DNA from: an uncultured Candidatus Saccharibacteria bacterium
Lineage (GTDB): Bacteria > Patescibacteriota > Dojkabacteria > SC72
Assembly (NCBI GenBank): GCA_964560525.1
Contig: CAZLLO010000002.1
Location: forward strand, 18,221-82,220
Length of the DNA stretch: 64,000 bases
Direction of reading: 5' to 3'
The first letter of the stretch is position 1. Each line of letters begins with the position of its first letter. This document shows positions 7,908-57,636 of this stretch, piece after piece. Under the pieces are notes generated by a model, which was not told the origin of the DNA, ran no database searches, and saw only the letters and a list, made by a program, of their open reading frames with translations. The translations under genes were made by a program, and so were the position numbers.

Positions 7908-8540
7908 ATGCTTCCAAGAGAAAAATATTTAGAAAGGGGTATAGATAGCCTCAGTGATATGGAGTTAATAGCCATAATTATTGGTTCTGGTATTAAGGGT
8001 CATGATTTTATGTCCGTTTCCAGATCTGTGGTATATCAAATACGAAAATCTATAAAGAAGAATGGGAATGTAGATATTAAGGATATTGTTGATATTCTTG
8101 GTATTGGTTTAGCTACAGCTATGAAGATTCTCTCTGGTATTGAATTGGGTAGGAGGTTGTATGACCTAGGTAACAAGGAGAAGATTTCTGTTAGAAATGC
8201 ACAAGAGGCTTACTATTTGTTAAAGGATATGCGAAACAAGAAACAGGAATATATTGTGGGATTGTTTCTTAATTCTAGATTTGAGTTACTAGAACAACGT
8301 ACATTGGCTATTGGTACAGTGGATGGGGCTGGGTTACTTCCGAGGGATGTTATTATTCCTGCATTAGAACTTAATGCTAGTTCTGTTATTATGGCACATA
8401 ACCATCCTTCTGGGGATTCTTTACCTAGTAATGAGGATATTGATGTTACACAGAGGGTAGGGAAAGCGTTAGATTTAGTAGGGATTAAACTACTAGATCA
8501 TATGGTTATAGGGAAGGATGATTGGAAAAGTATTTGTTAA
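7908..8540 (+). CDS. radC: RadC-family JAB/MPN domain protein
   Basis: N-terminal HhH-like region and C-terminal JAMM motif HNHPSGDSLPSNED. Confidence 0.85.
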   Translation: MLPREKYLERGIDSLSDMELIAIIIGSGIKGHDFMSVSRSVVYQIRKSIKKNGNVDIKDIVDILGIGLATAMKILSGIELGRRLYDLGNKEKISVRNAQEAYYLLKDMRNKKQEYIVGLFLNSRFELLEQRTLAIGTVDGAGLLPRDVIIPALELNASSVIMAHNHPSGDSLPSNEDIDVTQRVGKALDLVGIKLLDHMVIGKDDWKSIC

Positions 8541-8937
8541 GCGTATCTACCTTCATTTTGATTTTGTTAAAAATAGTTTCTACAGCAAAATCGAAAGGTA
8601 TAAAAACATCTTGGATATTCCAGATTTCATAATTTTTACCATTGTATCCCAGGGTTTTAGTGCAATACAGAAATTGCTTCTTGGTCATGAATATTATCAA
8701 ATCCTGTTCATCGAGGATCTCTTTTGTAGTTAAAGTCCAAATCTTGGAGGCATATTTCAATAGATCATTTTTAAGAAGAATCTTTTCTGTATATCTACAT
8801 ATTGGACCATCTAAATTTCTTGAAGCTTCAATACCACTTGAACTTACGTTGTTCCCTTTAACATCTTTTGATATTAAATATGCTTCTGCTAAACGACTTC
8901 TGAATGTATTCCCATTACAAACGAAATGAATTTTCAT
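8506..8937 (-). CDS. Low-molecular-weight protein tyrosine phosphatase / ArsC-like
   Basis: N-terminal P-loop VCNGNTFRS (C-x5-R-S) of LMW-PTPs, in a 143-aa protein. Its 3' end overlaps radC convergently by about 35 nt. Confidence 0.7.
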   Translation of the reverse strand: MKIHFVCNGNTFRSRLAEAYLISKDVKGNNVSSSGIEASRNLDGPICRYTEKILLKNDLLKYASKIWTLTTKEILDEQDLIIFMTKKQFLYCTKTLGYNGKNYEIWNIQDVFIPFDFAVETIFNKIKMKVDTLNKYFSNHPSL

Positions 8938-8961
8938 AAATATACTTTACTACACAATTAG

Positions 8962-9303
8962 ATGATTGGAAAAGTATATTATGATAAACTTGATATAGTA
9001 ATGCCAAAGAAATTTGAAAGAAAAATAGAAGACTTTGAATGTGAAAACTGTCATACAAAAGTAAAAGGAAATGGATATACAGACCATTGTCCCAATTGCT
9101 TGTACTCCAAACACGTAGATATTAATCCAGGAGATAGAAAATCTCCTTGTAAGGGCTCAATGATACCAATAGCAGTAGAAGTTAAAAGAGATGGTTACAA
9201 AATACATTACAAATGTAAGAAATGTGGATATATACATAGAGTTAAGTCAGTACAAGAGGATAACTTTGATAGAATATTGGAATTAGTAAAGAAGCCATTT
9301 TAA
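8962..9303 (+). CDS. RNHCP-like zinc-ribbon protein
   Basis: Two Cys pairs (CENCH...DHCPNC and CKKCGY) and a TDHCPNC motif resembling the RNHCP domain signature. This is a 113-aa protein at the start of the AT-rich island. Confidence 0.35.
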   Translation: MIGKVYYDKLDIVMPKKFERKIEDFECENCHTKVKGNGYTDHCPNCLYSKHVDINPGDRKSPCKGSMIPIAVEVKRDGYKIHYKCKKCGYIHRVKSVQEDNFDRILELVKKPF

Positions 9304-9368
9304 AAGTATTTACAGTGACGTAGAGTGCTGTTATAATTTGATGCAATAAGTTAATTATTGCACCCAAA

Positions 9369-10178
9369 TTGATTCTCTCCCTCAAAAAAAATATTTCAGA
9401 ACCCGGTTGGGAATACTTGTATAACCCTCATGTACTTTCTGTTTTTGCAGAATATATGAAAGATCCTACATCAATATCTTTATGGGGTATTACAGGAGAT
9501 TTAGATAATTTAGGTGTTTTTGTTGCGGAAAATGGTAGAGCAAAAGCAGAGAATTTAGTAGATTTATACAATCAGGTAACTAGGAATTATATTAGCAATT
9601 GGTATCGTGAAAACACTAACGATGTACAAGCAGTCTGTTTTCTACCTTGTGGTGAAGAAGTTTTAATTCTTGGAACGACAAAAAATACAAATGTTGTTAC
9701 AAAACTTTTTTCCGAAATCAAAGCAGCAATAAAAGAAAAGATTAATGAATATGATTTCATTGAAGTTGGTGGTACAGGTGCAAGTTTTGGATGCTCAATT
9801 TTGCAAGAAAATTCTACGGATACTCTGATATCTCAGTTGATAAAGGATTATAAAAAAACCAGTGATGACGAGATTATCTACCCACAATATTTAAAAATAA
9901 TTGAACGAATACGAACAATATTAGCGATAGAACTAGATAAGTCCAAATTTAATGATATCTTAGATGGCCAGTATCCAATTCAGATGAGGCAACTTGTATT
10001 ATCGAGAATGTTGTTATACAAATTATCTACGAAGGAACTCATTGCTTCGATGAACAAGTTTGATCCAGAGTGTTTGAAATTAATCTTGAATAGTTTGGGA
10101 GAATCATATGGAATGAATTATGAGAAATCCGCATTTATAGATAACCTTTTGAAAGAAAATGAATCAAATAAAAAATAG
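9369..10178 (+). CDS. Standalone divergent GGDEF-like (palm-domain) nucleotidyl cyclase
   Basis: GDLDNLGVFVAENGRAKAENLV matches the GGDEF block DxDxFKxxNDxxGHxxGDxxL. It is followed about 50 aa later by a PCGEEV (GGEEF-like) motif, then ILGTTKN...KLFSEIKAAIKEKI...EVGGTGAS, matching the post-GGDEF helix and loop. There is no sensory or TM domain; the alpha-helical C-terminal region is about 120 aa. Confidence 0.55.
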   Translation: MILSLKKNISEPGWEYLYNPHVLSVFAEYMKDPTSISLWGITGDLDNLGVFVAENGRAKAENLVDLYNQVTRNYISNWYRENTNDVQAVCFLPCGEEVLILGTTKNTNVVTKLFSEIKAAIKEKINEYDFIEVGGTGASFGCSILQENSTDTLISQLIKDYKKTSDDEIIYPQYLKIIERIRTILAIELDKSKFNDILDGQYPIQMRQLVLSRMLLYKLSTKELIASMNKFDPECLKLILNSLGESYGMNYEKSAFIDNLLKENESNKK

Positions 10179-10767
10179 ACAGACAATTCTGATAGGTGGT
10201 GGCCAGGTTTGGAAAAATGAGACTGTTCCAATAGACGAATATATTGTAAAGCTGGCCAAAGAAGATACCCAATCACCCCAATTATTATTGATTCCAACAT
10301 CATCCAATGACAGAGAAGATTACATACAGGCTGTTAAAAAGATTTATGAATCCTTAGGTTGTGAAGTGAATGTGCTAAGGTTCTTACATAATAAATATAC
10401 AAAGGAAAATGTTAGGGCAGAAATACAAAATTCTTCGATAATATATTTAGGATCTGGAGATCCAGCTATCCTCGAGAATGTATTGTCAGGAATGGATTTA
10501 AAGGAAACCTTTTTAGAGTGCCTTAACAAGTATTCAAAAATATTAGTTGGTTCAAGTGCAGGAGCTGCACTATTGTCGGAAAACTATATTGATGTCCTTT
10601 CCGATGATTTGAAACTCCAGAAAGGTTGGGGAATTATACCCCAAATAACCGTTGTACCGCATTATTCTGATAAGCTAAACATGGGAGATGAGGGCTTCCT
10701 TTTGCTTAGAGATTTGGAGATAGCACATTTTGATTTAGATAAACTTTGTAGAAAAATTCAATTTTAG
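10159..10767 (+). CDS. Peptidase S51 family (dipeptidase E / cyanophycinase-like)
   Basis: IIYLGSGDPAIL and the nucleophile elbow VGSSAGAALLSE (GxSAG) match PepE. The start overlaps the upstream gene by 20 nt. Confidence 0.7.
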   Translation: MNQIKNRQTILIGGGQVWKNETVPIDEYIVKLAKEDTQSPQLLLIPTSSNDREDYIQAVKKIYESLGCEVNVLRFLHNKYTKENVRAEIQNSSIIYLGSGDPAILENVLSGMDLKETFLECLNKYSKILVGSSAGAALLSENYIDVLSDDLKLQKGWGIIPQITVVPHYSDKLNMGDEGFLLLRDLEIAHFDLDKLCRKIQF

Positions 10768-10768
10768 A

Positions 10769-11842
10769 GTGATAGACAAATCAGAATCGATAAAAAGTGG
10801 ATCTGAGGTTTCTATTGTTAATCCAGTATCTGTCCAGCCAGAGAGATTTCATGCGAATGCAGAAGTTACAGATTATCTTGAAAATATAGGTTTCAAAGTA
10901 ACAGATTATACAGCTCTACAGGGGGACGATTTTGAGAGAGTTGATAGGTTTAATTCTGCGGTTGCTTCTGGGGCAAAGGCTTTATTCCCTGTCACAGGAA
11001 ATAACTTTGGAGAAAATCTGATAGATAAAATTGATTACGAAAAAATAAAGGAGTTGAAACCAATGTTTACAACATTTAGTGCAGCTTCTACCTTTCAATT
11101 AGCAATACAATCTCAGTCAGAGCTGGAAACATTTTATGGCCCACACATCTCCTTTATTCAATCTAAATCTAGCTATCGTGAGAATTCATATACGGTTACC
11201 TCATATTTAAATATGCTTTGTGGGACATCTGCAAGGTGGGGATTACAAGGAAAACTCTCTGGCCTTGCGTTTAGGAATAGGTTGGAAAGTGAGGGAACAG
11301 TTATGAGAAATATAATATCTAGAATAGACACTTTAGGTGATATATACAAAGGTGAACCGATACCATTTATAGGAAAAACAGAAGCATCTCAAATGTTTGT
11401 AACGGGGAAACTACTTCCAACTTTTTTGCAGGGTTTGGATGTTGCTGGAAAACTTGGAATAGAGCTAGACTTAAATAATAATATACTCCTTGTTGAATCA
11501 AATGATACCTCGTATGAGAAGGCGTTAGAGCATATGAAATCTATTAATGAAACATATGATTTGTCAAAACTTTCTGCAATCGTCTTAGCCTCTTTTATTC
11601 ATAGAAAGACGTCAGAAAAAGATTTTGGATATTCACTTTACGATAAAACCAGAGCATCAATCTTTGTTAGAGAAGTAGAGAAGATTGTAAAAAACAATAT
11701 TCCTGTCCTGTACGGTTTTCCAATTGGTCATGGAAGGTATAAATTAACCGTGCCAATAGGTATCAATGCAAAATTAGATCTTGCAACAGGCGATTTATAT
11801 TTAACAGAATCACCATATAAAGATGTCAAAAAATCAAATTAA
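10769..11842 (+). CDS. Peptidase S66 family (LD-carboxypeptidase LdcA / MccF-like)
   Basis: KPMFTTFSAASTF...ETFYGPHI aligns to the S66 nucleophile block nPKIfxGYSDiTaL...TfhGP with the Ser retained. The C-terminus YGFPIGHGRYKLTVPIGINAKLD matches the GFPxGH...LPxG...LD block with the catalytic His. The start is GTG. Confidence 0.65.
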   Translation: MIDKSESIKSGSEVSIVNPVSVQPERFHANAEVTDYLENIGFKVTDYTALQGDDFERVDRFNSAVASGAKALFPVTGNNFGENLIDKIDYEKIKELKPMFTTFSAASTFQLAIQSQSELETFYGPHISFIQSKSSYRENSYTVTSYLNMLCGTSARWGLQGKLSGLAFRNRLESEGTVMRNIISRIDTLGDIYKGEPIPFIGKTEASQMFVTGKLLPTFLQGLDVAGKLGIELDLNNNILLVESNDTSYEKALEHMKSINETYDLSKLSAIVLASFIHRKTSEKDFGYSLYDKTRASIFVREVEKIVKNNIPVLYGFPIGHGRYKLTVPIGINAKLDLATGDLYLTESPYKDVKKSN

Positions 11843-12884
11843 AGGAATTTCTCCTTATGACAATGTCGCTTTAGTTACACCAGGGGATTTATTACCACCG
11901 ATGTACAAAGAACAGAAAACAAATATAAAAAATTATCTTAAAAAGATAGGTTATACATGTAAAGACTTGACGAATTGTTATGGAGAAGATGCGGTAATTC
12001 AGAGGGCGAATAATTTGAATAATGCGTTCGAGGATAAAAGCATAAAAGCGGTATTTCCGATTTGTGGAGGTGAACGTTCAGATGAAATTGTAGATTTTTT
12101 AGATTACAGCTTAATATCTCAAAATCCAAAGATTTTTTGTGGATATGCAGGATTATCATATTTACTTAATAAAATAGCTTTTAATGCAAGGATAACAACT
12201 TTCTATGGGCCTCATTTAAATTTAATAAATGATGGAGCTACAAAAAGAGAAACCAATTTTACTATTTGGAACTATTGGAAATTGTTTTCGAATGAAGAAT
12301 ATAAAGAGGATTTAGATTTTAATGTGAATGAAAATGAATATAAAATGGAAAGCAGTCTTAATGGGTTGAAAACTATCAAATATAAAAATATTTTTGCATC
12401 GGAAATATATTCAAAAAGTAGTCCTGATAATTATTTCTTCTATAATAAAAATGCCAAGGGAAAATATTTAGAAGGAACTTCGGTTGTAACCTCTCTTAAT
12501 TCATTAGAAAAGGTTTGCTCAATGTTAATAGAGAATAGAATCGAGGATTTTCTTCTATTTGTTGATTTCTTTGATACGGGTGAAAAGGATATATTAAAAG
12601 TTTTTAAGAAGATATCAAAAGTCTTAATGTTGCAGCATTGTAGTGGGATAATAATTACAAATTTAACGACACACGGAGATTTCAATATGGATCATTTTTA
12701 CACTAGAGAAGAAATTAAAAGCATAGTTGATGATATCTCCGTTTTATTCCAAGAAAAACTAAGCATCCTTTATGGTTTTCCAGTAGGGCATAGTAAATAT
12801 AAATTTGTAGTGCCAATCAATTGGAAAGTTAAAGTTAATTGTGTAAATGGGGATATAACTTTTGCAAATCCTTTTAAAATATGA
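11823..12884 (+). CDS. Peptidase S66 family paralog, predicted nucleophile Ser replaced by Ala
   Basis: NPKIFCGYAGLSYLL...TTFYGPHL aligns to PKIfxGYSDiTaL with Ser to Ala and Asp to Gly. The C-terminal YGFPVGHSKYKFVVPI block is retained. The gene overlaps the upstream S66 gene by 20 nt. Confidence 0.6.
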   Translation: MSKNQIKGISPYDNVALVTPGDLLPPMYKEQKTNIKNYLKKIGYTCKDLTNCYGEDAVIQRANNLNNAFEDKSIKAVFPICGGERSDEIVDFLDYSLISQNPKIFCGYAGLSYLLNKIAFNARITTFYGPHLNLINDGATKRETNFTIWNYWKLFSNEEYKEDLDFNVNENEYKMESSLNGLKTIKYKNIFASEIYSKSSPDNYFFYNKNAKGKYLEGTSVVTSLNSLEKVCSMLIENRIEDFLLFVDFFDTGEKDILKVFKKISKVLMLQHCSGIIITNLTTHGDFNMDHFYTREEIKSIVDDISVLFQEKLSILYGFPVGHSKYKFVVPINWKVKVNCVNGDITFANPFKI

Positions 12885-13546
12885 AAATTCTATGTAAAAG
12901 AGAAGAGATGGAAATTCTGAAAAAGAGGGGAGTGCACAGTCTTGTTCACTTCACTCCGTTATCCAATCTTCAGAGAATTCTTGTTGAAGGACTTAAACCC
13001 TTAAACTCTGCAGGAGAAGAGTTAGTATGTGCAAATCAGAGTACGCGAATCCAAGCAGATGGAGATTTAATAAGCTTCTCAATAGAATATCCTGGTTACA
13101 TGTACCTTCAAAGTCTTATAAAAAAGTGTGGGGAAATATTTGTAATACTGTATTATCCAATCGAACTTCTTGCAGGCAAGAAAGTTTTCATATATAAAAG
13201 CAATCCGGCTATTCCTCGTTGGGGAGAAGCAGAAACTTTTGAGGATTTGTTTTTCGAAGAATTTAGATATAAGAAATTACCCTCCTATTACCCAAGTGAT
13301 CCAAGAGCCGAGATTCGTATGCAGGGATGTATCAATAGTTCTCAAATTCAAAAAATTGTGTTTCCTTCTGTGTTGAAGGAAGACATTCCCCAAATTCAAT
13401 CTCTTTTTCCCGATATAAAAATTTTAATAGATGACAATGTATTTGAACCAAGAATAGATTCCGATTACTGGACGAGTATCCGTACCCAGGGTTTAGATAT
13501 TTGCCCTTTAATATCGGAGACTTGTCCTTCGAAGGCGGTTTCATAA
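12881..13546 (+). CDS. DUF4433 / DarT-like ADP-ribosyltransferase-fold protein
   Basis: The N-terminal LVHFTPLSNLQRILVEGLKP matches the DarT/DUF4433 signature (hyHfTxxxNLxsILxxGL). The protein is about 220 aa, as DarT is. The 4-nt ATGA start overlaps the upstream gene. No adjacent macrodomain (DarG) gene. Confidence 0.55.
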   Translation: MKILCKREEMEILKKRGVHSLVHFTPLSNLQRILVEGLKPLNSAGEELVCANQSTRIQADGDLISFSIEYPGYMYLQSLIKKCGEIFVILYYPIELLAGKKVFIYKSNPAIPRWGEAETFEDLFFEEFRYKKLPSYYPSDPRAEIRMQGCINSSQIQKIVFPSVLKEDIPQIQSLFPDIKILIDDNVFEPRIDSDYWTSIRTQGLDICPLISETCPSKAVS

Positions 13547-13674
13547 AACCTTGCATAACCGTTATTAAATATGTATAATCCATCTGTTATTTAATCTCAT
13601 ATATCCCTGTAATTTTCCTGGATGATATATAAATATCACCCACCAGAGATATTAATAAAAGGAAAGATATAAAA

Positions 13675-14805
13675 ATGGAAAAAACAAAAGAAGTCTTAAC
13701 AGAGACAAAGACTCAAAACAAAGTCTCTAACGTAAAACTCCCAGAAATAATAGATCTACTAAAAGCAGGCTGTCATTTTGGACACAAGAAAAGTGCTTGG
13801 AATCCAAGAATGAAACAGTACATATATGAAGAGAGAAATGGTATTCATATCATCGACTTAGTAAAAACTCAAGAACTCATAAAGACAACCGTAGATGCAT
13901 TAGCAAACCTCTCTGACAAAGGAAACATCCTCATCGTTGGTACAAAAGGACAAGCAGCATCAATAGTTGAAAAAGTAGCAACCGAAAACGGTGCTTTCTA
14001 TGTAAACAAAAGATGGCCAGGTGGACTCTTCACAAACTTTGAAGTAGTAAGAAGAAGTATTCTTTCTTTAACAAAAATGGAAGAGAGTTTAGCAAAAGGT
14101 GGAGAAGATTTGGTTAAAAAAGAAGAACTATTAATGCAAAGAGAAGTTGTAAAATTGGAAAGAATCTACAAAGGTATTAAGTTCATGGATAAACTTCCAG
14201 AAGCAGTAATCATCGTAGATACAAAAGTTGAGAAATTAGCAATCAAAGAAGCAAGAATTGCAGGTATTCCAATCATAGGATTAGTAGATACAAACTGTAA
14301 TCCAGATTTAGTAGACTACCCAATCCCAGCAAATGATGACTCTCTAAAGAGTATCTCATTGCTCTTGGATATCTTAGGAAAAGTAGTTGGCGAATCTAAG
14401 AGATCTCAATCAATCATAGCTTTGAGAAATAGCCAGAAAGCAACCTTAGAACTTCTAAATAGACAGTTCTTGGAGCAAAAGGAAAGACAAGCTAAGATGG
14501 AAGCAGAAGACAGAGAAAGAATGAAGGCATTAAGAGAAGGAAAAGTAGCTGAGTCTAAGGGAACTGTAGTAAGAGTTGTTAAAAAAGATATCAGTGCAGA
14601 AATAGAAGCAGCAGAAGAAGCAAAAAAGATCTCTGATTCTAAGAGCATTGAAGACCTAGGACTTTCTGCAAGAATAGTAAAAGCACTTGAAGAGAACAAC
14701 ATTAAAAATGTAAGTGATCTCTCAGGTAAAACAAAAGAAGATTTAATGGAAATTAAAGGAGTAGGAGAGAAAGCTGCTTTGGATATTTTGAAATCTCTTA
14801 AATAA
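13675..14805 (+). CDS. rpsB: 30S ribosomal protein S2 with C-terminal (HhH)2-like extension
   Basis: S2 core (LLKAGCHFGHKKSAWNPRM...IHIIDL...). It is extended to 376 aa with a coiled-coil linker and a C-terminal IEDLGLSARIVKALEENNIKNVSDLSGKTKEDLMEIKGVGEKAALDIL resembling the RNAP alpha-CTD helix-hairpin-helix. Confidence 0.9.
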   Translation: MEKTKEVLTETKTQNKVSNVKLPEIIDLLKAGCHFGHKKSAWNPRMKQYIYEERNGIHIIDLVKTQELIKTTVDALANLSDKGNILIVGTKGQAASIVEKVATENGAFYVNKRWPGGLFTNFEVVRRSILSLTKMEESLAKGGEDLVKKEELLMQREVVKLERIYKGIKFMDKLPEAVIIVDTKVEKLAIKEARIAGIPIIGLVDTNCNPDLVDYPIPANDDSLKSISLLLDILGKVVGESKRSQSIIALRNSQKATLELLNRQFLEQKERQAKMEAEDRERMKALREGKVAESKGTVVRVVKKDISAEIEAAEEAKKISDSKSIEDLGLSARIVKALEENNIKNVSDLSGKTKEDLMEIKGVGEKAALDILKSLK

Positions 14806-17346: not shown

Positions 17347-18471
17347 ATGAGAATGAATCTGTCCAAGAAAAAGAAGATTATTGTATCCGCTATATTTTTT
17401 ACAGTATTAGCTGGTACTGGTGGGTATTTACTTTGGAGAGTAAATAATAGAGAAACATTAGCAGAGGTTCCAGGATTAGCTTCCAATTGTTATGCTAGGT
17501 GTAAAAGAACAAGCGGTGATGACCCAGGTCATATCATAGATGCAGCTTGTACCGACCCTGAAAGATGTGCAGGATATACAAATGAAAACGGTGGACAATC
17601 TTTGTGTGAATATGAGACAGTATGTGATGCAGAACCAGCAGAAGTCTGTGGTAATGGTACTTGTGTAAGCGGAGTTGAGAATGTAACCAGTTGTCCTGCA
17701 GATTGCTCCGTATGTGGTGATAATCTATGTACAGGTACAGGCGCTGAAAATTTGACTACATGCCCAGGAGATTGTTCAGTATGTGGTGATAACAAATGTA
17801 CTGGTCCTGAGACATTAGCTACATGTCCAGGAGATTGTTCTGTATGTGGAGATAACAAATGTACAGGAAGTGAAACCGCTGCAACATGTGCTTCTGATTG
17901 TGTATGTAAAGATCTTACTTGGACAAATAAACCAAGTGGAAAATATAATCCTTCGAGAGAATTCCCTACAATTACAGTAACCAATACCAACAGTAAAAGC
18001 ACAACTAGTACAGGTACCACGATTAAACTTAACGATGTGGCTGTCGGAGCATGCTCTACCGCAAACACAGAAACCTGTTATAGTCTTAGTAATAACACAG
18101 ACGGTTTTCAAGTAGTATCAATAACCCTGTTTAAGGGTGTCAACGCAATAAAGGTAGGAACATACGCGTTAGCTATAGAGCTACCCGTTGATACAGGGTT
18201 GTGTGCACAGGATTCTGTAAATACATCAACATCATTTACCATTGAAGCCAATGCTGTAGTCGTTGTTCCTGAAACAGGAATATTAGATGGTGTGATGGGA
18301 AAAGTATATATAGGTACAGTATTTGTCTTCTTAGGGGTTATGACAACTCAATATCCAAAGATTAACTATGCTGTCCATATTCTGGGAGAGAAAAATAAAA
18401 TAGTATCCGACGAAAAGCGAAAGAAGAGAGAAGAAAGTAGAAGAAATAGATTCGAAAAAAGATTCAAATAA
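17347..18471 (+). CDS. Cys-rich tandem-repeat cell-surface protein
   Basis: N-terminal TM/signal; three tandem copies of CPxDCSVCGDNxCTGxE; Thr-rich linker; C-terminal TM helix plus a basic tail (KRKKREESRRNRFEKRFK). Confidence 0.5.
   Translation: MRMNLSKKKKIIVSAIFFTVLAGTGGYLLWRVNNRETLAEVPGLASNCYARCKRTSGDDPGHIIDAACTDPERCAGYTNENGGQSLCEYETVCDAEPAEVCGNGTCVSGVENVTSCPADCSVCGDNLCTGTGAENLTTCPGDCSVCGDNKCTGPETLATCPGDCSVCGDNKCTGSETAATCASDCVCKDLTWTNKPSGKYNPSREFPTITVTNTNSKSTTSTGTTIKLNDVAVGACSTANTETCYSLSNNTDGFQVVSITLFKGVNAIKVGTYALAIELPVDTGLCAQDSVNTSTSFTIEANAVVVVPETGILDGVMGKVYIGTVFVFLGVMTTQYPKINYAVHILGEKNKIVSDEKRKKREESRRNRFEKRFK
17690..17900 (+). repeat. Three tandem, nearly identical DNA repeats of about 60 nt encoding the CPGDCSVCGDNKCTG modules
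   Basis: tgcccaggagattgttcagtatgtggtgataacaaatgtac... repeated with few substitutions. This explains the spurious antisense ORFs 17529..18068 and 17815..18111. Confidence 0.6.
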
Positions 18472-26558: not shown

Positions 26559-27380
26559 CTATTCTGACCTTAATAGATCTTCGGTTAATTGAGCAAGAGA
26601 ATTCACAGTAGTTTCAATGCCGGGACGACCATTTATTTCTGCACGAGTATTCCGAATGTAGAAGTTAGTTATATCTTTGTATCTTTGGCTATCTTCAATA
26701 TTCTTTTGAATTCTGTTTTGTAGTTCTTCCTCGGATAAATTAGTAGCCCTTTCGATCATCTCATTTTGTGTTTGATCTAGGCTATCTGGTAACACAGTGA
26801 AGTTAACAATCTGAAACTCGTCTTGTGGAATTAATTGATTAAGTGTTACGGCTCCATTTATTTCAGTCCTAATGACTGGGATACACCAAGGATTGTCTGA
26901 TAGGGCAAGAGAACGCTTGGGAAGCCCATATAGGTTTAGATTGTGTACGTCATTTTCAATTAACTCATATTCCTGTCGTAGATTTTCATAATATTGCTCT
27001 TCTGTTCCATCGGCAGGTGTCATCCATCTCATCCAAACATATGCATTCTCGGGTTCTACAGTTGCAAGTCCCTTTTCCTCAAATTCTTTTAAAATGGCAA
27101 AGTATTGGCTTTGAGTCAATGCAGAGTCTGCTATCTCTTTAAGCCTTCCTTTGTCTTCATCTTTGATAGCCTTAAATCTTCTCAATCGGGAAGTTGCAGT
27201 TAGGATATGTCTAAAGAGATTTAGATTGGCCATCTCACATACGATTCTATCTTTTCCTGATCCTCCTGCACCGATGAGAATGCCAACTAGCTGGCGATTA
27301 TTTCTGGGGCCTAATTCTATTCCTTTGTAGATATTTGGATATATTTCTAGTCCTGGTATCTCGATTGATCCTGTTTCCAT
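26559..27380 (-). CDS. P-loop NTPase, guanylate-kinase-like with C-terminal extension
   Basis: Walker A GAGGSGKD and a TATSRLRR block resembling the GMK SATTRxxR motif. At 273 aa it is longer than canonical Gmk, and the GMP-binding YxF region is not evident. Confidence 0.35.
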   Translation of the reverse strand: METGSIEIPGLEIYPNIYKGIELGPRNNRQLVGILIGAGGSGKDRIVCEMANLNLFRHILTATSRLRRFKAIKDEDKGRLKEIADSALTQSQYFAILKEFEEKGLATVEPENAYVWMRWMTPADGTEEQYYENLRQEYELIENDVHNLNLYGLPKRSLALSDNPWCIPVIRTEINGAVTLNQLIPQDEFQIVNFTVLPDSLDQTQNEMIERATNLSEEELQNRIQKNIEDSQRYKDITNFYIRNTRAEINGRPGIETTVNSLAQLTEDLLRSE

Positions 27381-31792: not shown

Positions 31793-32926
31793 CTAGTAAT
31801 AACCACCACAAACAAAGGTAACACTCTCTGAGTAGCTTCCTGCTTGTGCAGATGAACCTGCTCTTGCACCATATGTAATTGTAGAATTTTCTGCAGATGC
31901 TTGTGCACCATTCTGGTAAAGAATTAACTGTGCTCCTGAGGTTGTCCTATCCAAGGCTCCAAATGTACCCGCAGTCCCATCACTGAAATCAGAAGGTACA
32001 ACTGCTGCACCACCTGCATCAGGATCTGAGACTGTCATTCCAAAACCTTCTGCACCTACACCAGTAAGTGCAATTGTGCCACTTCCTGTTGAAGGAATAA
32101 GGTATGTTGTTGCGGAAGATTTGTACAATCCTGCATCTGTAGAGCTATCTCCTGTACCATATGCTGCCCAGTAGTATCCACTTGTTGTGGTTGAAGTTGT
32201 TGTCGAAATTGTATGTGTTACTGTTGAGTATGATCCACCAGGGTAGAGTGAGCCTAAGCTTACTGCACTGGTACTGATACTACAGTTTACAGAAGGAACA
32301 GCAGCAACTGTTGCAGAGATAACGACAGTATCACTTGCTACTAAGTATAGCCCAAAGGTACTAGAGTCGATGGTTGTTCCGTTTTTGGCCTCAACTGTTA
32401 CATCATGTTCTCCTGCAGAAGATGCAGTTCCAATAACGCCTGCAGCTGATCCATTTGTAATCTTTACACCGTAGGTGGTACCTGCGGTTAAAGCGCCTAC
32501 GTTTGATATTGTTATCTTATCTACTGATGATGATCCTGATCCTTGAGCGCATACTGCTGCCAAGGCGGTACCAGAATTTGGCATAACAGCATCAATTGCC
32601 CAGTTTGTAGTTGCATAGTCTGCAGCTGAAGATGAGACACCTGTTACTGTTAATGCACCTGCGGTTCTACACCAAGTGGAATCATCTCCATCAGGGAATG
32701 ATATTGTTACTGTCCCTCCAGAGGGTATTGTTTGTGCAGTATCGATAGCTAAGACATATTCTACGGTAGGAGAGGAACCATTGATATTGGTTTGAATTCT
32801 ACTAAGGTAGAGATATGATGCTGAAAGGGCACCTGCTTTAGAAGTGAAGTATGGGAAAAGTAGTACAAAGAAGATCGATAAGACGAGAATGGAGATACTT
32901 CCTGTAATCAAGCTAGACTTTTTCAT
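31793..32926 (-). CDS. Secreted Ser/Thr/Gly/Ala-rich surface protein
   Basis: N-terminal signal/TM, low-complexity T/S/G/A-rich beta-type sequence, C-terminal aromatic end (CGGYY). Confidence 0.45.
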   Translation of the reverse strand: MKKSSLITGSISILVLSIFFVLLFPYFTSKAGALSASYLYLSRIQTNINGSSPTVEYVLAIDTAQTIPSGGTVTISFPDGDDSTWCRTAGALTVTGVSSSAADYATTNWAIDAVMPNSGTALAAVCAQGSGSSSVDKITISNVGALTAGTTYGVKITNGSAAGVIGTASSAGEHDVTVEAKNGTTIDSSTFGLYLVASDTVVISATVAAVPSVNCSISTSAVSLGSLYPGGSYSTVTHTISTTTSTTTSGYYWAAYGTGDSSTDAGLYKSSATTYLIPSTGSGTIALTGVGAEGFGMTVSDPDAGGAAVVPSDFSDGTAGTFGALDRTTSGAQLILYQNGAQASAENSTITYGARAGSSAQAGSYSESVTFVCGGYY

Positions 32927-33057
32927 ATTTTTAGGGCAGAAATATAATGAGTACCTTTAATACAAGTATAATTTAATCAATATATGTATACTTTGTCAAA
33001 TAATTATATGGTAATAATAATCTCCTCCAAAAACATTGGAGTAGGGGGTATCCTTTA

Positions 33058-34263
33058 TTAGTACCTAGGTACTAGGATGAAGTATATTTCCTCAGAATAA
33101 TCAGTAGCAGGAGTCTTGTTGGTGCTAGCTTTTGCGATGAGATTGATTCCAATTCGACCATTTTGTATTGGACCACTTCCGTCATACATTTTACTTGCAG
33201 TTGTAAGTACTGCTCCTACATTGTTTATACTTCCTCCATAACCTGTAACGGTGGAGAGATTTCCTAGATATGCTGAAGTGTCATTGTACATATAGTAGTT
33301 TTGTAATCCAAAGCCCTCAGATGCTGCATCTAGATCTGCAGTTGCCGAGGCTATGGTTTGAGATGTGGTTGTACTTCTTAGTCCACCATTCTTACCATAT
33401 TGTATAACGGCTACACCACCAGAAGAGTTACTACTAATATCCAACCATACCAAGCTAGTTGATTTGGTTGCAGCCGCACCTGCTACTAAGTTACTTGCGC
33501 CTGAGAAGGAGATAGTATATGGAGAACTTGATTCTGTAGAGGTCCCACTTGATGGTGCAATATCAATATCAAAGAACACTGTCCCAATTGTAGTGGTTGC
33601 ACTAGAAGCTTTACTGTAATCTGATTGGGTGAAATCTCCACTCAATGCAGAGATTTCAATGTAGTAGGTAGTATTTGATGCTAATCCTTTAATATTGAAA
33701 ACCTCAGCTTCCCAATATGCTTGTGTTCTAAAATCATTAATATCATGATTTGCTAAAAGTTCTGGTTTAAATGTTGCTCCATCTATATATTGCACATCAT
33801 TAACAAAATTGTCTGTAGATATAGCTATGGTATATAGAGTGTCAGATGGATTACTGTTAGTTATGATTTCAAATCGAGCCTTGTCATAGCATCCATTACC
33901 TCCACACAGTGCTACCATTCCTCCACTTAATTCAGCAGGTCCTGTTAAGCAGTTGGTACTCCCATTTGTTGTAGTTTCAAAGCATTGGATACCTGGTTGT
34001 GCAGCTAAGAAGTTTGATGATGGGTCTTGTTGTAGTCTGTAGTTAGCAGAGTAGTTTCTAGGGTCTGCGGATATGTTACCTACTGTACTTGCTACGCTGT
34101 AATTACCTGATACTGAATCGAGTAGTCCACCTCCTGTGGATGTAGTAGCGCCTACAATTTTGTAGTTACCTGAATCTAGGTCTGTAGCGAATGCAGATTG
34201 TGCTAGTGTAAGGGATATCCCAGTTACAAGGATTACTTTGAATATGTTGGCAGTTTTCATCAT
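33058..34263 (-). CDS. Secreted Ser/Thr/Gly-rich surface protein
   Basis: Signal peptide (LTLAQSAFATD), long S/T/G/N-rich region, C-terminal ...YFILVPRY. Confidence 0.45.
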   Translation of the reverse strand: MMKTANIFKVILVTGISLTLAQSAFATDLDSGNYKIVGATTSTGGGLLDSVSGNYSVASTVGNISADPRNYSANYRLQQDPSSNFLAAQPGIQCFETTTNGSTNCLTGPAELSGGMVALCGGNGCYDKARFEIITNSNPSDTLYTIAISTDNFVNDVQYIDGATFKPELLANHDINDFRTQAYWEAEVFNIKGLASNTTYYIEISALSGDFTQSDYSKASSATTTIGTVFFDIDIAPSSGTSTESSSPYTISFSGASNLVAGAAATKSTSLVWLDISSNSSGGVAVIQYGKNGGLRSTTTSQTIASATADLDAASEGFGLQNYYMYNDTSAYLGNLSTVTGYGGSINNVGAVLTTASKMYDGSGPIQNGRIGINLIAKASTNKTPATDYSEEIYFILVPRY

Positions 34264-37684: not shown

Positions 37685-38182
37685 ATGTCAACAAAAAGAC
37701 AAGTTTTTTATAGTTTTCATTATAAACCTGATAACTGGAGGGCCGCTCAGGTTCGAAATATTGGAGCAATAGAAGGAAACAAACCTGCGCCTGATAATGA
37801 TTGGGAGGATATTGCCAGTGAGGGAGATGATGCGATAAAAGAGTGGATTGATGATCAACTTAAATATAGATCTTGCACCATTGTGCTAGTTGGGAGTAAT
37901 ACAGCAAATAGAAAGTGGATTAATTATGAAATAATAAAATCCTGGAATGAAGAAATGGGAGTGGTAGGGATATATATTCATGGATTGAAGAACAAAGATG
38001 GATATATTAGTGAAAAAGGAGAAAATCCTTTCGATTACATTGGTTATGGAGATGAAAAATTATCTTCTGTTGTAAAATGTTATAACCCTCAGGGTACTAA
38101 TAGCCAGGAAAGATATGATTGGATAAGCAGGAACATCTCAGTTATCGCAGAGCAGGCTGTTAATATTAGGAAAAGCAATTAA
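37685..38182 (+). CDS. TIR-like domain protein (ThsB-like, DUF1863-type)
   Basis: QVFYSFHYKPDNWRAAQVRN N-terminal block, VLVGSNTANRKWINYEIIKS (a Glu at the position of the catalytic Glu of ThsB-type TIRs), GIYIHGLKNKDGYISEKGENPFDYIGY C-terminal block. The protein is 165 aa. Confidence 0.65.
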   Translation: MSTKRQVFYSFHYKPDNWRAAQVRNIGAIEGNKPAPDNDWEDIASEGDDAIKEWIDDQLKYRSCTIVLVGSNTANRKWINYEIIKSWNEEMGVVGIYIHGLKNKDGYISEKGENPFDYIGYGDEKLSSVVKCYNPQGTNSQERYDWISRNISVIAEQAVNIRKSN

Positions 38183-38248: not shown

Positions 38249-38788
38249 ATGTTAACCATAACCTACTTTGTACATGGTACAACTACAGATAATGAACAAC
38301 ACATATCCAGTGGTTGGAAAGATGTAGATATATCTAAAAAAGGTATACAACAATCCATAGAACTACCCACCTTAAATACCACACCCTTTGATACAGTATT
38401 CTGTAGTGATCTATTAAGAGCCATACATTCCACAAACCTATCATTTAAAGATAAATATCCAATAGTTATAGATAAAAGATTAAGAGAATGTAACTATGGT
38501 GATTACAATGGTAAACCATCGGATATGGTAGAACCATTACAAGAACAAATGATATATACAAGATTCCCTAATGGAGAATCATATGAAGATGTAAAGGAAA
38601 GAATAGGGTTATTCTTAAACGATATTAAAAGTAAATACGATGGTAAACATATAGCTATAGTTGGACATAAAGCACCCCAATTAGCATTAGATGTATTACT
38701 AAAGAATATGACATGGGAAGAAGCATTTAAAAACGATTGGAGAAAGATAGGGAAGTGGGAAGCAGGGTGGGTGTATACAATGAACTAA
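38249..38788 (+). CDS. Histidine phosphatase superfamily (PGAM-like) protein with a non-canonical Val in place of the RHG Arg
   Basis: YFVHGTTTDN (HG...N of RHGxTxxN), second His block IAIVGHKAPQLAL. The conserved Arg preceding the catalytic His is replaced by Val. Confidence 0.6.
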   Translation: MLTITYFVHGTTTDNEQHISSGWKDVDISKKGIQQSIELPTLNTTPFDTVFCSDLLRAIHSTNLSFKDKYPIVIDKRLRECNYGDYNGKPSDMVEPLQEQMIYTRFPNGESYEDVKERIGLFLNDIKSKYDGKHIAIVGHKAPQLALDVLLKNMTWEEAFKNDWRKIGKWEAGWVYTMN

Positions 38789-39727: not shown

Positions 39728-40372
39728 ATGAGAGACTTTAATAGATCAGGTGGAAACAGTAGAGGCGGAGGAAGAAGCTTCGGTGGAGGTGGTAGAGGTA
39801 GAAGTTTTGGAGGAAGAAGCGAAAGACCAGAAATGTTCGATGCAGTATGCGATCAATGTGGAAAAGACTGTAGAGTCCCATTTAGACCATCTGGAGACAA
39901 ACCAATATACTGTAGCGAATGTTTTGAATCAAAGAGAGAAGACGGTGGTAGAGATGACAGAGGAGGAAGATTTGAAAGCAGAGATAGAAGACCAAGCTTT
40001 GATAGAGGTGGATTCAGGGATAGAGAAGAGAAGCAAATGTTTACAGCAGTATGTGATCAATGTGGACAGGAATGTGAAGTTCCATTCAAACCATCAAGTA
40101 ACAAACCAATATTCTGTAGCAAATGTTTCGAAGGTAAAGAAGGAAACAAGAGTAATGGTAGAGGTGGATGCAACTGTGATTGTAAAGCAGAGATTGAAGC
40201 ATTAAACAAGAAATTGGACAAGATTATTAGTATTCTTGAACCTATTAAAGAGGTAAAAGCTACTAAGAAAGCTATAGAAAAGGAAGTTGCTGAAGTAGTT
40301 AAGGAAGTAAAGAAAACAGCAAAGAAAGTAGCTAAAAAGGCAAAAGAAGTTAAGGAAGTAATTACTGAATAA
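39728..40372 (+). CDS. RGG-rich tandem zinc-ribbon nucleic-acid-binding protein with Lys-rich histone-H1-like tail
   Basis: N-terminal RGG/GGRS repeats; two copies of MF(D/T)AVCDQCG(K/Q)(D/E)C(R/E)VPF(R/K)PS(G/S)(D/N)KPI(Y/F)CS(E/K)CF(E)(S/G)K (CxxC...CxxC ribbons); C-terminal KKLDKIISILEPIKEVKATKKAIEKEVAEVVKEVKKTAKKVAKKAKEVKEV. Confidence 0.55.
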   Translation: MRDFNRSGGNSRGGGRSFGGGGRGRSFGGRSERPEMFDAVCDQCGKDCRVPFRPSGDKPIYCSECFESKREDGGRDDRGGRFESRDRRPSFDRGGFRDREEKQMFTAVCDQCGQECEVPFKPSSNKPIFCSKCFEGKEGNKSNGRGGCNCDCKAEIEALNKKLDKIISILEPIKEVKATKKAIEKEVAEVVKEVKKTAKKVAKKAKEVKEVITE

Positions 40373-56710: not shown

Positions 56711-57019
56711 TCATGCTACTTGTATGCGATTGCAGCATCCGTTAACAGCTTTCTGGAGGGAAGGGTCTATTCCAACCATGGCAAGGAGGATTTGTCTCCT
56801 CAGATTATGCAATGTTGAATAATCTGTTAGAGGCAGGATATCTCTCATTTCTACCATAATATCGAAAATCTGGCGAACGAACTCATCTGGAGTCCATTCT
56901 TCGGGAACGTAATTTTCGATACATGCCTGGATTAACTCTTGCGGAACTGGGGGAGAAATCCCTCGTAATCCCTCTGTTATTTGATCCTCACTCAAATTGA
57001 TAATGAGCTTTTGGGACAT
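56711..57019 (-). CDS. Hypothetical protein
   Basis: A 102-aa acidic ORF with no recognisable motifs. Confidence 0.35.
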   Translation of the reverse strand: MSQKLIINLSEDQITEGLRGISPPVPQELIQACIENYVPEEWTPDEFVRQIFDIMVEMRDILPLTDYSTLHNLRRQILLAMVGIDPSLQKAVNGCCNRIQVA

Positions 57020-57155
57020 TAAGCACCTCCATTTAAGCTATTTGAATAATAGCAATGAAATTATATCAATATCTGTTAGTTATTCCTATACTATGGGGAA
57101 TGTATTGCGTTCCAGGTCAAGTTTTTGGGCTTGACCTGGAGTAGGTCTTAAAAAT

Positions 57156-57476
57156 TCAGAGTGATGTTTTCTTCTTAAGCTTTTCGTAGATTTTTGATTC
57201 TACAGCCATAGTGATTAATACAGGAACTAAAAAGAGAAGAATCTCTACTTCTGTACTAATGTCAGCATTGAGTCTAAGTGCAAGCACAAGAGAAATATAC
57301 ATCATTATGCAGGCAAGATTCATTGCTATTTTGAATGGCTTGGGGAAGATGGCTCCTGGTTTGGATTCGGAATCTTCGAATCTTTCCTTTTTTATAGCCC
57401 AAAGTATGAGTAATATTGTCGATGCAAGGGCTAGAAGGAAACCTAAAATCCCAAGATATATACAAAAAATTACCAT
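57156..57476 (-). CDS. Hypothetical 3-TM membrane protein
   Basis: A 106-aa ORF with three hydrophobic helices. Confidence 0.35.
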   Translation of the reverse strand: MVIFCIYLGILGFLLALASTILLILWAIKKERFEDSESKPGAIFPKPFKIAMNLACIMMYISLVLALRLNADISTEVEILLFLVPVLITMAVESKIYEKLKKKTSL

Positions 57477-57588
57477 ATCTCACAACCTTTCTCTGAAATT
57501 TGTAACGATCTAAGATCAATTATACCTCTGAGATATACTATAAGACAAGGACTAGAGAGGTTAATGGGGGATTTAAGAGAATGAAATG

Positions 57589-57619
57589 CTTGGGCAATCA
57601 AAGTTGTTGATTGCCCAAG
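57589..57619. repeat. Perfect 13-bp inverted repeat CTTGGGCAATCAA-AGTTG-TTGATTGCCCAAG
   Basis: Located 18 nt beyond the 3' end of the minus-strand gene 57637..57867. No U-tract on either strand, so it may be a protein-binding palindrome or an RNA stem-loop. Confidence 0.5.
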
Positions 57620-57636
57620 ATGGAGCAGAAAGGGGG

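Follow-up and report, generated by a model that had tools for sequence, protein, structure and literature searches.

A predicted DarT1-branch ADP-ribosyltransferase encoded beside S66-family and GGDEF/Cas10-like proteins

To our knowledge, every characterised DarT is paired with a protein that removes ADP-ribose, either a macrodomain or a NADAR protein, and from this pairing comes the view of bacterial DNA ADP-ribosylation as a reversible toxin-antitoxin switch. In the DarTG2 systems of Thermus and M. tuberculosis, DarT2 carries the H-Y-E motif, with Tyr71 and His119, and modifies N3 of thymidine; its antitoxin, DarG, combines a macrodomain with a DarT-binding domain. DarT1 of the DarTG1 systems, represented by E. 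coli C7 DarT1 (8baq) and L. lactis pIL105, is guanine-specific. Its antitoxin is a NADAR protein, and non-cognate NADARs are able to neutralise DarT1 in trans (PMC11543638). Two further groups of proteins bear on the present locus. The S66 family includes LdcA, a murein tetrapeptide LD-carboxypeptidase, and MccF, which gives immunity to microcin C by aminoacyl-nucleotide cleavage. In Panoptes systems, minimal Cas10-like polymerases (mCpol) control toxic effectors (PMC13580996).

The DarT-like gene considered here lies in a 64-kb stretch of DNA, called the window below, and belongs to a small clade whose members appear to keep the DarT1 active site, with the eraser exchanged for a serine-peptidase-family partner and a linked small GGDEF/Cas10-like nucleotidyltransferase. 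This arrangement may represent a new control of a DNA-ADP-ribosylating toxin, by a pseudo-peptidase antitoxin and possibly by nucleotide gating, or else the action of DarT-type enzymes on a new class of substrate. A conserved but so far uncharacterised module of palm and S66 genes comes to light as well. The small size of the constructs (221-357 aa) makes these questions directly testable.

The DarT-like protein and its active site

An earlier note on this DNA had assigned the last gene of the operon to the DarT family under the DUF4433 label. The reading frame was found at exactly the stated position (Table 1). With homologues that match at E values from 1e-41 to 1e-115 and a synteny that is conserved, it is a genuine gene and not a chance ORF. 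The label was not reproduced by Pfam's own model: Pfam-A, PF14487/DUF4433 included, gave no match at E<=1. NCBIfam and PADLOC gave none either, and the precomputed PF14487 matches of two clade members, P0003 and P0155, are only "weak" or "faint". The silence of these collections on this protein and on the palm protein described below is attributed to model sensitivity, not to absent homology. Indeed, phmmer against the PDB matched the ORF to 8baq at E=2e-7 (2.2e-7), the clade profile matched 8baq at E=1.5e-29, and a profile search returned PF14487-annotated proteins. The alignment to 8baq covers residues 9-180; the earlier note had named a match confined to the N-terminal motif as fatal to its assignment. 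In the alignment this motif, LVHFTPLSNLQRILVEGLKP, is paired with HFT, the NAD-binding motif of E. coli C7 DarT1.

The AlphaFold model (pLDDT 86.9) agrees with these matches. The best eight Foldseek matches in the PDB are all DarT structures, with TM 0.72/0.77 and E=2.7e-12 on 8baq and TM 0.56 on Thermus DarT2. Identity to DarT1 is 28% over the whole length, and both proteins are single-domain and equal in size (~210-220 aa). DarT2 belongs to the same ART family and shares the overall fold (TM ~0.5-0.56), but is not matched in sequence by the clade profile. The clade profile and the fold match to DarT1 thus support the family assignment. By sequence and model, the protein is a bona fide member of the DarT1 branch (guanine-specific, NADAR-paired) of the DarT ADP-ribosyltransferases, and its active site is intact.

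The active site was compared with the residues essential in E. coli C7 DarT1, with R52, D54, M71, N104 and E152 (plus H17, F18, S63 and F72) as the test set. H23, F24, R56, S67, M74, N108 and E144 of the DarT-like protein match H17, F18, R52, S63, M71, N104 and E152 of DarT1, respectively, and Y75 is aligned and conserved at the position of F72. Mutation of the DarT1 counterparts of H23, R56, S67, M74, N108 and E144 abolishes toxicity (PMC11543638). E144, the catalytic Glu, lies in the invariant motif DPRAEI and, like R56 and N108, is invariant across 38 DarT-family sequences, and H23, S67 and M74 are invariant within the clade. The essential residues are all conserved except D54, which is out of register: Q58 is aligned to it, and the nearest Asp is D60. 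The earlier note had placed the catalytic Glu in the stretch SQIQKIVFP, with Gln possibly replacing it in a diverged enzyme; this stretch is residues 154-162, beyond the true position, and the conserved residues leave the proposed divergence unsupported. The catalytic set in common with DarT1 consists of H, R, S, M, E and the N that reads guanine N2/N3. The base-coordinating residue is thus Asn as in DarT1, whereas DarT2 has His, and the H-Y-E motif of DarT2 was not found, Ser67 occupying the Tyr position and Asn108 that of the base reader.

The clade differs from DarT1 around the substrate. It has x/Ser in place of K74/Y75, the DarT1 readers of guanine O6 and N7, and Arg in place of Q150, and its ARTT loop is shorter by ~12 residues. 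The substrate site bears a signature peculiar to the clade (YMYLxSL, NP[AY] and PRAEI). Isoelectric points range from 5.2 to 9.5 among clade members, that of DarT1 being ~5.0, and are uninformative on a DNA or non-DNA substrate.

The operon and its S66, S51 and palm proteins

The DarT-like gene is the last of a tightly packed operon. Successive overlaps measure 20, 0 and 20 nt, and at the last junction a 4-nt ATGA joins the stop codon of S66B to the DarT-like start codon. Its terminal position in what the earlier note called a GGDEF-peptidase operon was confirmed, and the linkage is conserved in six independent lineages, which makes the suggestion in that note of a different mode of regulation a reasonable reading. 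The promoter-like site in Table 1, 31 nt upstream of the first cassette gene, is the best in 8400-13900, but is a consensus match only, and the promoter-like total in the region is not above that of shuffled sequence. GC content of the cassette is 0.30-0.35, below that of the flanks (~0.37). An RNHCP zinc-ribbon gene (8962-9303) upstream was rejected as a member of the system, since it is absent from the orthologous cassette in locus L003; it is also set apart from the operon by the promoter-like site.

Table 1. Features of the cassette in the window
Feature	Position	Strand	Remarks
Promoter-like site	9309..9337	+	TTTACA-17 nt-TATAAT with extended -10 TG; 11/12 consensus positions
Palm protein	9369..10178	+	269 aa, TTG start; N-terminal GGDEF/Cas10-palm-like nucleotidyltransferase domain and C-terminal helical domain
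S51 peptidase	10159..10767	+	202 aa, cyanophycinase/PepE-like; Pfam Peptidase_S51 E=5e-22
S66A	10769..11842	+	357 aa, LdcA/MccF-family serine hydrolase; Pfam S66 and S66C; Ser, His, Glu kept
S66B	11823..12884	+	353 aa, DarT-adjacent S66 paralogue; Pfam S66 and S66C; nucleophile Ser replaced by Ala (GYAGLS)
DarT1-branch ADP-ribosyltransferase gene	12881..13546	+	221 aa, ATG start; catalytic competence predicted from sequence

The GSSAGA nucleophile motif and the PH motif of the S51 protein align to the cyanophycinase-like 6nqc. Both S66 proteins carry the two S66 domains of LdcA and MccF above the Pfam cut-offs (PF02016 and PF17676). S66A keeps the Ser-His-Glu triad in the motifs TFSAAS, GHGRYK and VES, respectively, and clusters with the S66 of palm-S51-S66 trios that have no DarT (100% bootstrap). 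Set against G[FY]SD, the Lmo1638/MccF nucleophile motif, S66B shows Ala in the nucleophile position, which in its L003 orthologue is taken by Gly; the Glu of the triad is replaced by Asp in S66B. S66B is probably a pseudo-enzyme, to judge by these residues. It forms one clade (70% bootstrap) with the sole S66 proteins of the remaining DarT-clade loci. Loss of the nucleophile within this clade is confined to loci that also encode an intact second S66; in type-B loci, the one S66 protein has Ser-His-Asp. Unlike LdcA and MccF, S66A and S66B belong to a separate clade that is always palm-linked, and no cell-wall recycling or microcin context was seen at the cassette. In the window, a resident palm-S51-S66A module carries S66B and DarT as an appended pair, and S66B is the candidate DarT partner.

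The first gene of the operon, called GGDEF in the earlier note, resembles this family at the level of fold and motif only. Pfam GGDEF (PF00990) did not match it, and neither did any other Pfam (E<=1), NCBIfam or PADLOC family; where the motif GG[DE]EF was looked for, the sequence reads C-G-E-E-V. The AlphaFold model (pLDDT 92.6) has its closest PDB folds in GGDEF domains and Cas10/Csm1 (Foldseek probability 1.0, E ~2e-3, TMt 0.46-0.57) and predicts a beta-alpha-alpha-beta-beta palm with metal-binding acidic residues. D44-x-D46 and the beta-hairpin G95-E96-E97 are invariant in 94 homologues and correspond to the DxD after beta1 and the acidic G-E-E hairpin of GGDEF cyclases, Cas10 and mCpol. 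Like mCpol, the palm protein is small, stand-alone and encoded beside a potentially toxic effector. It differs from these families in having no I-site, no family match at threshold and a unique conserved C-terminal helical domain, and its partners are peptidases, not CARF or TM effectors as in Panoptes. Searches with Pfam and PADLOC found no mCpol, CARF or TM effector, and no cassette protein has an extra sensor domain, whereas Panoptes effectors carry one (2TM-beta or CARF-TM). Homologues of 235-270 aa occur in the DarT-clade loci L003, L009, L015 and L061, and the sole trace of the GGDEF/Cas10/mCpol families among them is a Cas10-Cmr2_palm2 match of the L009 homologue at E=0.018.

Distribution of the clade and its missing antitoxin gene

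The clade accounts for ~6 of 2,592 DarT-family clusters, and a profile scan with its seven-sequence alignment found no relatives among 185,579 species representatives. Its six lineages, 39-46% identical to one another, have differing gene orders. An S66 gene nevertheless lies upstream of the DarT-like gene in all of them (the window, L003, L009, L015, L017 and L061), the two overlapping, abutting or standing no more than 15 nt apart in five; in L015 a methyltransferase gene comes between. A palm gene is present in the same cassette at every DarT-clade locus with enough flank. This layout contrasts with that of DarT1-NADAR pairs: there is no NADAR gene, the partner stands upstream, which reverses the gene order, this partner is an S66 serine-hydrolase-family protein, and palm, S51 and methyltransferase genes are linked as well. 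The S66-DarT-palm arrangement was described nowhere that was found; a search of the literature gave nothing relevant on DarT together with S66/LD-carboxypeptidase or on MccF together with GGDEF.

The palm-S66 module, with or without S51 or a methyltransferase, occurs without DarT at ~30 loci, mostly in Patescibacteria and often among housekeeping genes. An S51 gene is present in half of the palm loci (15/30), methyltransferases recur in palm-S66 loci, and tblastn detected no remnants of DarT pseudogenes in those that have no DarT. P0155 is a fusion of a DarT-like protein to a class-I SAM methyltransferase, encoded in the order S66 - fusion - palm. Type-B loci adjoin integrase and conjugation genes and encode an HprK-related P-loop protein and a CbiR/EndoIV-like TIM barrel, both weak matches (E ~5e-5 and 1e-3); PDB profile searches with the 311-aa and 233-aa proteins of these loci gave nothing significant. 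Phage records held no match for either protein queried, and plasmid records only remote canonical DarT matches. Rarity, low cassette GC and the integrase and conjugation neighbours of type-B loci give an accessory or conflict-like character.

The earlier note had expected a macrodomain partner, DarG, as an invariable companion of DarT and reported none. The absence was upheld in the window, among ORFs of at least 100 aa between 514 and 61584, where Pfam searches matched no Macro or NADAR family (by eye, the three final ORFs, 61603-63964, looked like housekeeping genes). The expectation overlooked the pairing of DarT1 enzymes with NADAR antitoxins (PMC11543638), and it is NADAR that should accompany this gene. 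Neither PF22397 nor any other NADAR or Macro match was found among the window ORFs of at least 100 aa, and tblastn with two NADAR-DarT1 antitoxins found nothing in the window or at any clade locus, while positive controls worked. The flanks of the six lineages, up to 10 kb, likewise yielded no NADAR. A macrodomain gene on the complementary strand, which would have made a canonical DarTG, was not found either, all ORFs beneath the operon on that strand being 83 aa or shorter. The closest outgroups of the clade are canonical DarT1-NADAR pairs, and P0008/L021 and pIL105/L062 encode the NADAR-DarT1 antitoxin (E=1e-34 and 2e-90). Set against these outgroups, the clade appears to have lost the NADAR antitoxin gene.

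Possible roles of the cassette

The most likely reading, tentative as it is, takes the DarT-like protein as a guanine-directed ADP-ribosyltransferase effector that is controlled by its S66 partner and not by an ADP-ribose hydrolase. The enzyme would transfer ADP-ribose from NAD+ to the exocyclic N2 of guanine, by homology most likely in single-stranded nucleic acid, and would act like its relatives as a growth-arresting effector or toxin. S66B, having lost its nucleophile, would restrain it by binding, and in single-S66 lineages the restraining partner would be a still-catalytic S66. The palm enzyme might supply a nucleotide, either to control the system or for the system to use. The S66 protein is proposed as the restraint because no ADP-ribose-removing enzyme is present at these loci. 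Several points count against this reading. The changes at K74/Y75, Q150, the ARTT loop and D54 touch the substrate site; the companions (class-I SAM methyltransferases, an HprK-like P-loop protein, a CbiR/EndoIV-like TIM barrel, and S51 or alpha/beta hydrolases) are all small-molecule-type enzymes; the palm-S66 core is common without DarT, often in a housekeeping setting; and no signal-sensor domain is recognisable in any cassette protein. We also know of no S66-family protein that acts as an antitoxin.

The companions and the methyltransferase fusion are more in keeping with biosynthesis or tailoring than with a toxin-antitoxin pair. A role in tailoring some nucleotide or small molecule ranks close behind and is nearly as likely, although by itself it is possible at best. 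The cassette would then make or remodel a nucleotide-containing small molecule, for example a guanine nucleotide or a peptidyl- or aminoacyl-nucleotide, the substrate class of MccF-type S66 enzymes, and the DarT-like enzyme would ADP-ribosylate it with no need of an antitoxin. The P0155 fusion, the recurrent methyltransferases, the HprK-related and CbiR-like proteins (weak as their matches are), base-contact residues unlike those of DarT1, the absence of an ADP-ribose hydrolase from the window and the clade loci, and a GGDEF-like partner that would plausibly handle guanine nucleotides all speak for this role. The predicted chemistry, ADP-ribose on guanine N2, is common with Pierisin, ScARP and Scabin, a group in which free guanine nucleosides and nucleotides have a precedent as targets. 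The guanine-specific ScARP and Scabin are reported to modify free nucleotides (PMC12945103), though the ARTs of this group are secreted toxins of another clade (R-S-E type) in an unlike gene neighbourhood. A more specific version is more doubtful still: a DarT1-derived enzyme, no longer a reversible DNA toxin, would ADP-ribosylate a guanine nucleotide or peptidyl-nucleotide made by the GGDEF/Cas10-like enzyme, with the S66/S51 proteins and methyltransferases maturing it, degrading it or giving immunity. If true, Patescibacteria and uncultured bacteria associated with the gut would have a nucleotide metabolite or signal of a new, ADP-ribosylated kind. Against tailoring, every characterised DarT is toxic and ssDNA-targeting, the nearest relatives are toxin-antitoxin pairs, and neither a precursor peptide nor an exporter or dedicated biosynthetic scaffold was seen; a binding role explains the lost S66B nucleophile more easily, and a rare, patchy DarT add-on fits a selfish or defence module.

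Such a module might also be gated by a nucleotide, in the manner of Panoptes or CBASS: an oligonucleotide of the palm enzyme, cyclic or linear, would by its presence or depletion switch on the DarT-like enzyme in phage infection, with the peptidases as co-effectors or signal-degrading enzymes. The palm model, with GGDEF/Cas10 fold and intact metal-binding DxD and GEE, and the linkage of palm to DarT-like genes are consistent with gating, as are the Panoptes precedent for Cas10-like control of toxic effectors (PMC13580996) and the anti-phage role of DarTG1 (PMC11543638). It is nevertheless unlikely, since neither the DarT-like protein (221 aa, a single ART domain) nor S66 has a CARF, SAVED, STING or other sensor domain, PADLOC finds nothing, the palm-S66 core occurs without an obvious effector and phage records hold no relatives; it also overlaps with the S66-controlled effector preferred here. 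Inspection covered 64 kb of the genome, so the antitoxin of an ordinary DarT1-NADAR pair could lie outside the window and, as the neutralisation by non-cognate NADARs suggests (PMC11543638), act in trans, the adjacency to the peptidase operon being incidental. The linkage to S66 and palm genes in six lineages so diverged and so differently ordered rules out an incidental adjacency, and with no NADAR within up to 10 kb in any lineage and a dedicated clade of DarT-adjacent S66 genes, this explanation is improbable. Least probable by far is a dead or decaying ART: it would account for the failure of the Pfam DarT model and for D54 being out of register, but the catalytic Glu, the NAD-binding His, Arg and Met and the base-binding Asn do not vary, seven clade members at 40-81% identity have 46 invariant columns in common, and the ORFs are full length in all lineages.

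Identity and active site of the DarT-like protein

The target ORF encodes an enzyme of the DarT1 branch whose active site is intact. Curated models are silent on it, with no match at E ≤ 1 in Pfam-A, NCBIfam or PADLOC, but comparisons of sequence, profile and fold with DarT1 agree on the DarT identity proposed in the earlier note. By phmmer against PDB sequences, E. coli C7 DarT1 (8baq) was matched with E = 2.2e-7 over target residues 10-178, so that the alignment runs past the N-terminal motif on which the proposal had been based. A profile from the eight closest homologues found 8baq at E = 1.5e-29 and did not find DarT2 (Thermus, M. tuberculosis) by sequence, and PF14487-annotated proteins were recovered by profile search of a 5.8-billion-protein collection. 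The eight best PDB matches of the AlphaFold2 model (38-sequence alignment, pLDDT 86.9) are all DarT structures; the TM scores are 0.72/0.77 against 8baq (28% identity over 208 columns) and 0.56 against Thermus DarT2.

In E. coli C7 DarT1, R52, D54, M71, N104 and E152 are essential; N104, the counterpart of His119 in thymidine-specific DarT2, reads the guanine, the nicotinamide is coordinated by two phenylalanines, F18 and F72, and the 'Y' of the H-Y-E motif is here a serine, S63 (Schuller et al. 2023, PMC11543638). HMMER alignments, corrected for a +1 offset of the PDB chain, place H23, F24, R56, S67, M74, Y75, N108 and E144 of the target at DarT1 active-site positions. R56, N108 and E144 are invariant across the 38-sequence DarT-family alignment, and H23, F24, S67, M74, N108 and E144 within the clade of the target and its closest homologues. 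The suggestion that Gln replaces the catalytic Glu in SQIQKIVFP was mistaken, because this Glu, E144, lies ten residues upstream in an invariant DPRAEI motif. D54 is the sole essential position not in register (aligned residue Q58, nearest Asp D60). At the substrate contacts the clade has its own signature: KMFYKY of DarT1 becomes YMYLxSL, with loss of K74 and Y75, which in DarT1 read O6 and N7 of the guanine; NAA becomes NP[AY], PQAEV becomes PRAEI, and about 12 residues are missing from the ARTT loop.

Linkage to S66 and palm genes

A dedicated S66 clade and a palm nucleotidyltransferase are obligate companions of the DarT-like gene. Its clade comprises only seven 90%-identity clusters (about 6 of 2,592 DarT-family clusters among 1.84 billion 50%-identity representatives), with no member in 185,579 species-representative genomes, and identity between lineages is 39-46%, the exception being a close relative of the window protein at 81%. 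An S66 peptidase gene precedes the DarT-like gene in all six lineages, with a methyltransferase gene between them in L015, and in the other five the two overlap, abut or lie ≤15 nt apart. Type A loci (the window and L003-L007) have the order palm-S51-S66A-S66B-DarT, and type B loci (L009-L016, several from human-gut metagenomes) the order S66-[methyltransferase]-DarT-311-aa P-loop-palm-233-aa protein. Loci L017-L020 read S66-DarT-P-loop up to the contig end, and the sixth lineage S66-fusion-palm, the fusion (P0155) joining a DarT-like protein to a class-I SAM methyltransferase. Comparison of all these layouts, that of P0155 included, gives S66, DarT-like and palm as the common core of DarT-positive loci; the lineages differ in gene order, and incidental adjacency is therefore excluded. 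The type B 311-aa protein is an HprK-related P-loop protein (E ~5e-5, below the cut-off), and a type B TIM barrel is CbiR/AP_endonuc_2-like (E ~1e-3). The genes downstream of the type B cassette resemble a natural-product or peptide-modification cluster.

The 221-aa ORF has exactly the coordinates given in the earlier note and is the last of five tightly packed genes, whose junctions are, in order, a 20-nt overlap, abutting, a 20-nt overlap and a 4-nt ATGA stop/start overlap. GC is 0.30-0.35 in the cassette vs ~0.37 in the flanks, where housekeeping genes lie upstream (mreBCD, PBP2, dprA, topA, radC) and downstream (rpsB, tsf, frr); rpsB has a separate -35/-10-like pair of its own. The RNHCP gene directly 5′ of the cassette is probably no member of the system: apart from the window, only the near-identical contig L001 has it at this place, and the orthologous cassette of L003 lacks it.

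Features of the window and related loci
Feature	Locus	Position	Strand	Details
RNHCP zinc-ribbon protein	window	8962-9303	+	PF12647, E=1.4e-25
Promoter-like site	window	9309-9337		TTTACA-17-TATAAT, extended -10 TG; best of region, just 5′ of palm gene
Palm protein	window	9369-10178	+	269 aa, gene 1
S51 peptidase	window	10159-10767	+	202 aa, gene 2
S66A	window	10769-11842	+	357 aa, gene 3
S66B	window	11823-12884	+	353 aa, gene 4
Target ORF (DarT-like)	window	12881-13546	+	221 aa, ATG start, gene 5 (last)
Ribosomal protein S2	window	13675-14805	+	376 aa, unusual fusion; C-terminal extension (314-376) matches RNA polymerase alpha C-terminal domain/HhH (PF03118, E=1.8e-13)
Membrane-anchored protein	window	17347-18471	+	374 aa; several near-identical Cys-rich repeats (CPGDCSVCGDNKCTG...); no Pfam match
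TIR protein	window	37685-38182	+	165 aa; Thoeris ThsB-type (PF08937, E=1.8e-26)
Histidine phosphatase	window	38249-38788	+	His_Phos_1, E=2e-25
Zinc-finger protein	window	39728-40372	+	two treble clefs (zf_Tbcl_2, E=5e-31), Arg/Gly-rich low-complexity stretch between
ORF without Pfam family	window	26559-27380	-	sizeable
ORF without Pfam family	window	31793-34263	-	sizeable
ORF(s) without Pfam family	window	56711-59351		sizeable
Downstream of type B cassette	L009/L010; L011; L015	15602-20645; 6875-11918; 329-1951		LeuRS, NTP_transf_5 (PF14907) nucleotidyltransferase, PP-binding carrier-protein-like genes, two ABC exporters, AMP-binding enzyme
194-aa protein	L003	6533-7117	-	next to type A cassette, opposite strand; faint NUDIX match, E=0.008
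Third S66	L003	7258-8304	-	opposite strand by type A cassette; canonical-looking, GYSD motif
Split palm, truncated S66	L037	5989-8247		one MAG; palm in two ORFs
Fic/DOC-HTH gene	L037	8599-9606		after split palm/truncated S66

The palm protein matches no curated family (Pfam, NCBIfam, PADLOC). In its model (94-sequence alignment, pLDDT 92.6), the N-terminal domain has a GGDEF/Cas10-palm fold (Foldseek probability 1.0, E only ~2e-3, TMt 0.46-0.57), and the C-terminal domain is helical and conserved; D44-x-D46 and, on a beta-hairpin, G95-E96-E97 are invariant. The 'GGDEF' label given to this first gene holds for fold and motif but not for Pfam membership. The S51 protein has both the GSSAGA nucleophile motif and the PH motif. 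S66A retains Ser, His and Glu, the single S66 of type B loci keeps Ser-His-Asp, and the nucleophile position of S66B is Ala (Gly in the L003 orthologue). In a neighbour-joining tree, all palm-linked S66 proteins are monophyletic (100%), S66A groups with those of DarT-less trios (100%), and the DarT-adjacent ones form a separate clade (70%).

At least 97 clusters, none annotated, make up the palm family. Thirty non-redundant palm loci, mostly from Patescibacteria (Daviesbacteria, Microgenomates, Saccharibacteria, Paceibacterota and others) and often amid housekeeping genes, carry S66 in 27 cases and S51 in 15, with methyltransferases, or an alpha/beta Ser_hydrolase replacing S51, as variable additions. 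The wider, DarT-less palm loci hold no DarT gene or remnant; in the window, therefore, an S66B-DarT pair has been added to a resident palm-S51-S66A module. The split and truncated genes of L037 suggest a copy of the palm module in decay.

Absence of an antitoxin gene and possible function

NADAR has been lost from the target clade. No Macro or NADAR match was found in the scanned window ORFs of ≥100 aa (514 to 61584), in keeping with the earlier statement that the window has no macrodomain partner. The last three ORFs (61603-63964), outside the family scan, are by eye HtrA, PrmC and RF1, and a look-up assigned the first two to trypsin/PDZ and methyltransferase families. As for a macrodomain gene adjacent on the complementary strand, as in canonical DarTG, no ORF there beneath the operon exceeds 83 aa. 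With two DarT1-type NADAR antitoxins as tblastn queries, no hit was obtained in the window or any related locus, and controls were strongly positive. Unlike the target clade, the nearest outgroups, P0008 (30% identity) and the DarT of L. lactis plasmid pIL105 (27%), are canonical DarT1-NADAR pairs, each followed by its NADAR-DarT1 gene (E=1e-34 and E=2e-90, respectively). In the literature searched, the partners described for DarT are all Macro or NADAR proteins (PMC11543638, PMC9503650), and nothing links it to S66 or GGDEF-like genes; the system containing the target gene may be new in kind.

The DarT-like protein may be a growth-arresting effector that attaches ADP-ribose to N2 of a guanine, with single-stranded nucleic acid as the probable target. 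It would be held in check by its S66 partner, and the palm enzyme would supply a controlling nucleotide. Since S66B is probably catalytically dead in both type A lineages, its restraint would presumably be exerted by binding. Several points favour such an effector: all characterised relatives are of toxin-antitoxin type, the gene is closely coupled to S66, the clade is rare and patchily distributed, the cassette forms an island of low GC, and type B loci have integrase and conjugation genes beside them, upstream of the cassette. Taken jointly, these proposals are tentative and fall somewhat short of an even chance.

MccF-type S66 enzymes cleave aminoacyl-nucleotides, and this favours the main rival, a tailoring enzyme that would have a nucleotide or peptidyl-nucleotide as its substrate; so do the methyltransferase fusion in P0155, the uniformly 'metabolic' companions, the base-contact residues altered vs DarT1 and the absence of an eraser of any kind, and we regard this explanation as only a little less likely than the effector. 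Of less weight are a nucleotide-gated defence like Panoptes or CBASS, weakened by the absence of sensor domains, an antitoxin encoded elsewhere, which conserved synteny contradicts, and a dead enzyme, which is at odds with residue conservation.

Other genes of the window

The TIR gene, followed by that of the histidine phosphatase, may represent TIR-based defence or NAD signalling in the same genome. The sizeable ORFs without a Pfam family include two Ser/Thr/Gly-rich secreted proteins, a 273-aa protein with a P-loop-like GAGGSGKD motif and a 451-aa protein.
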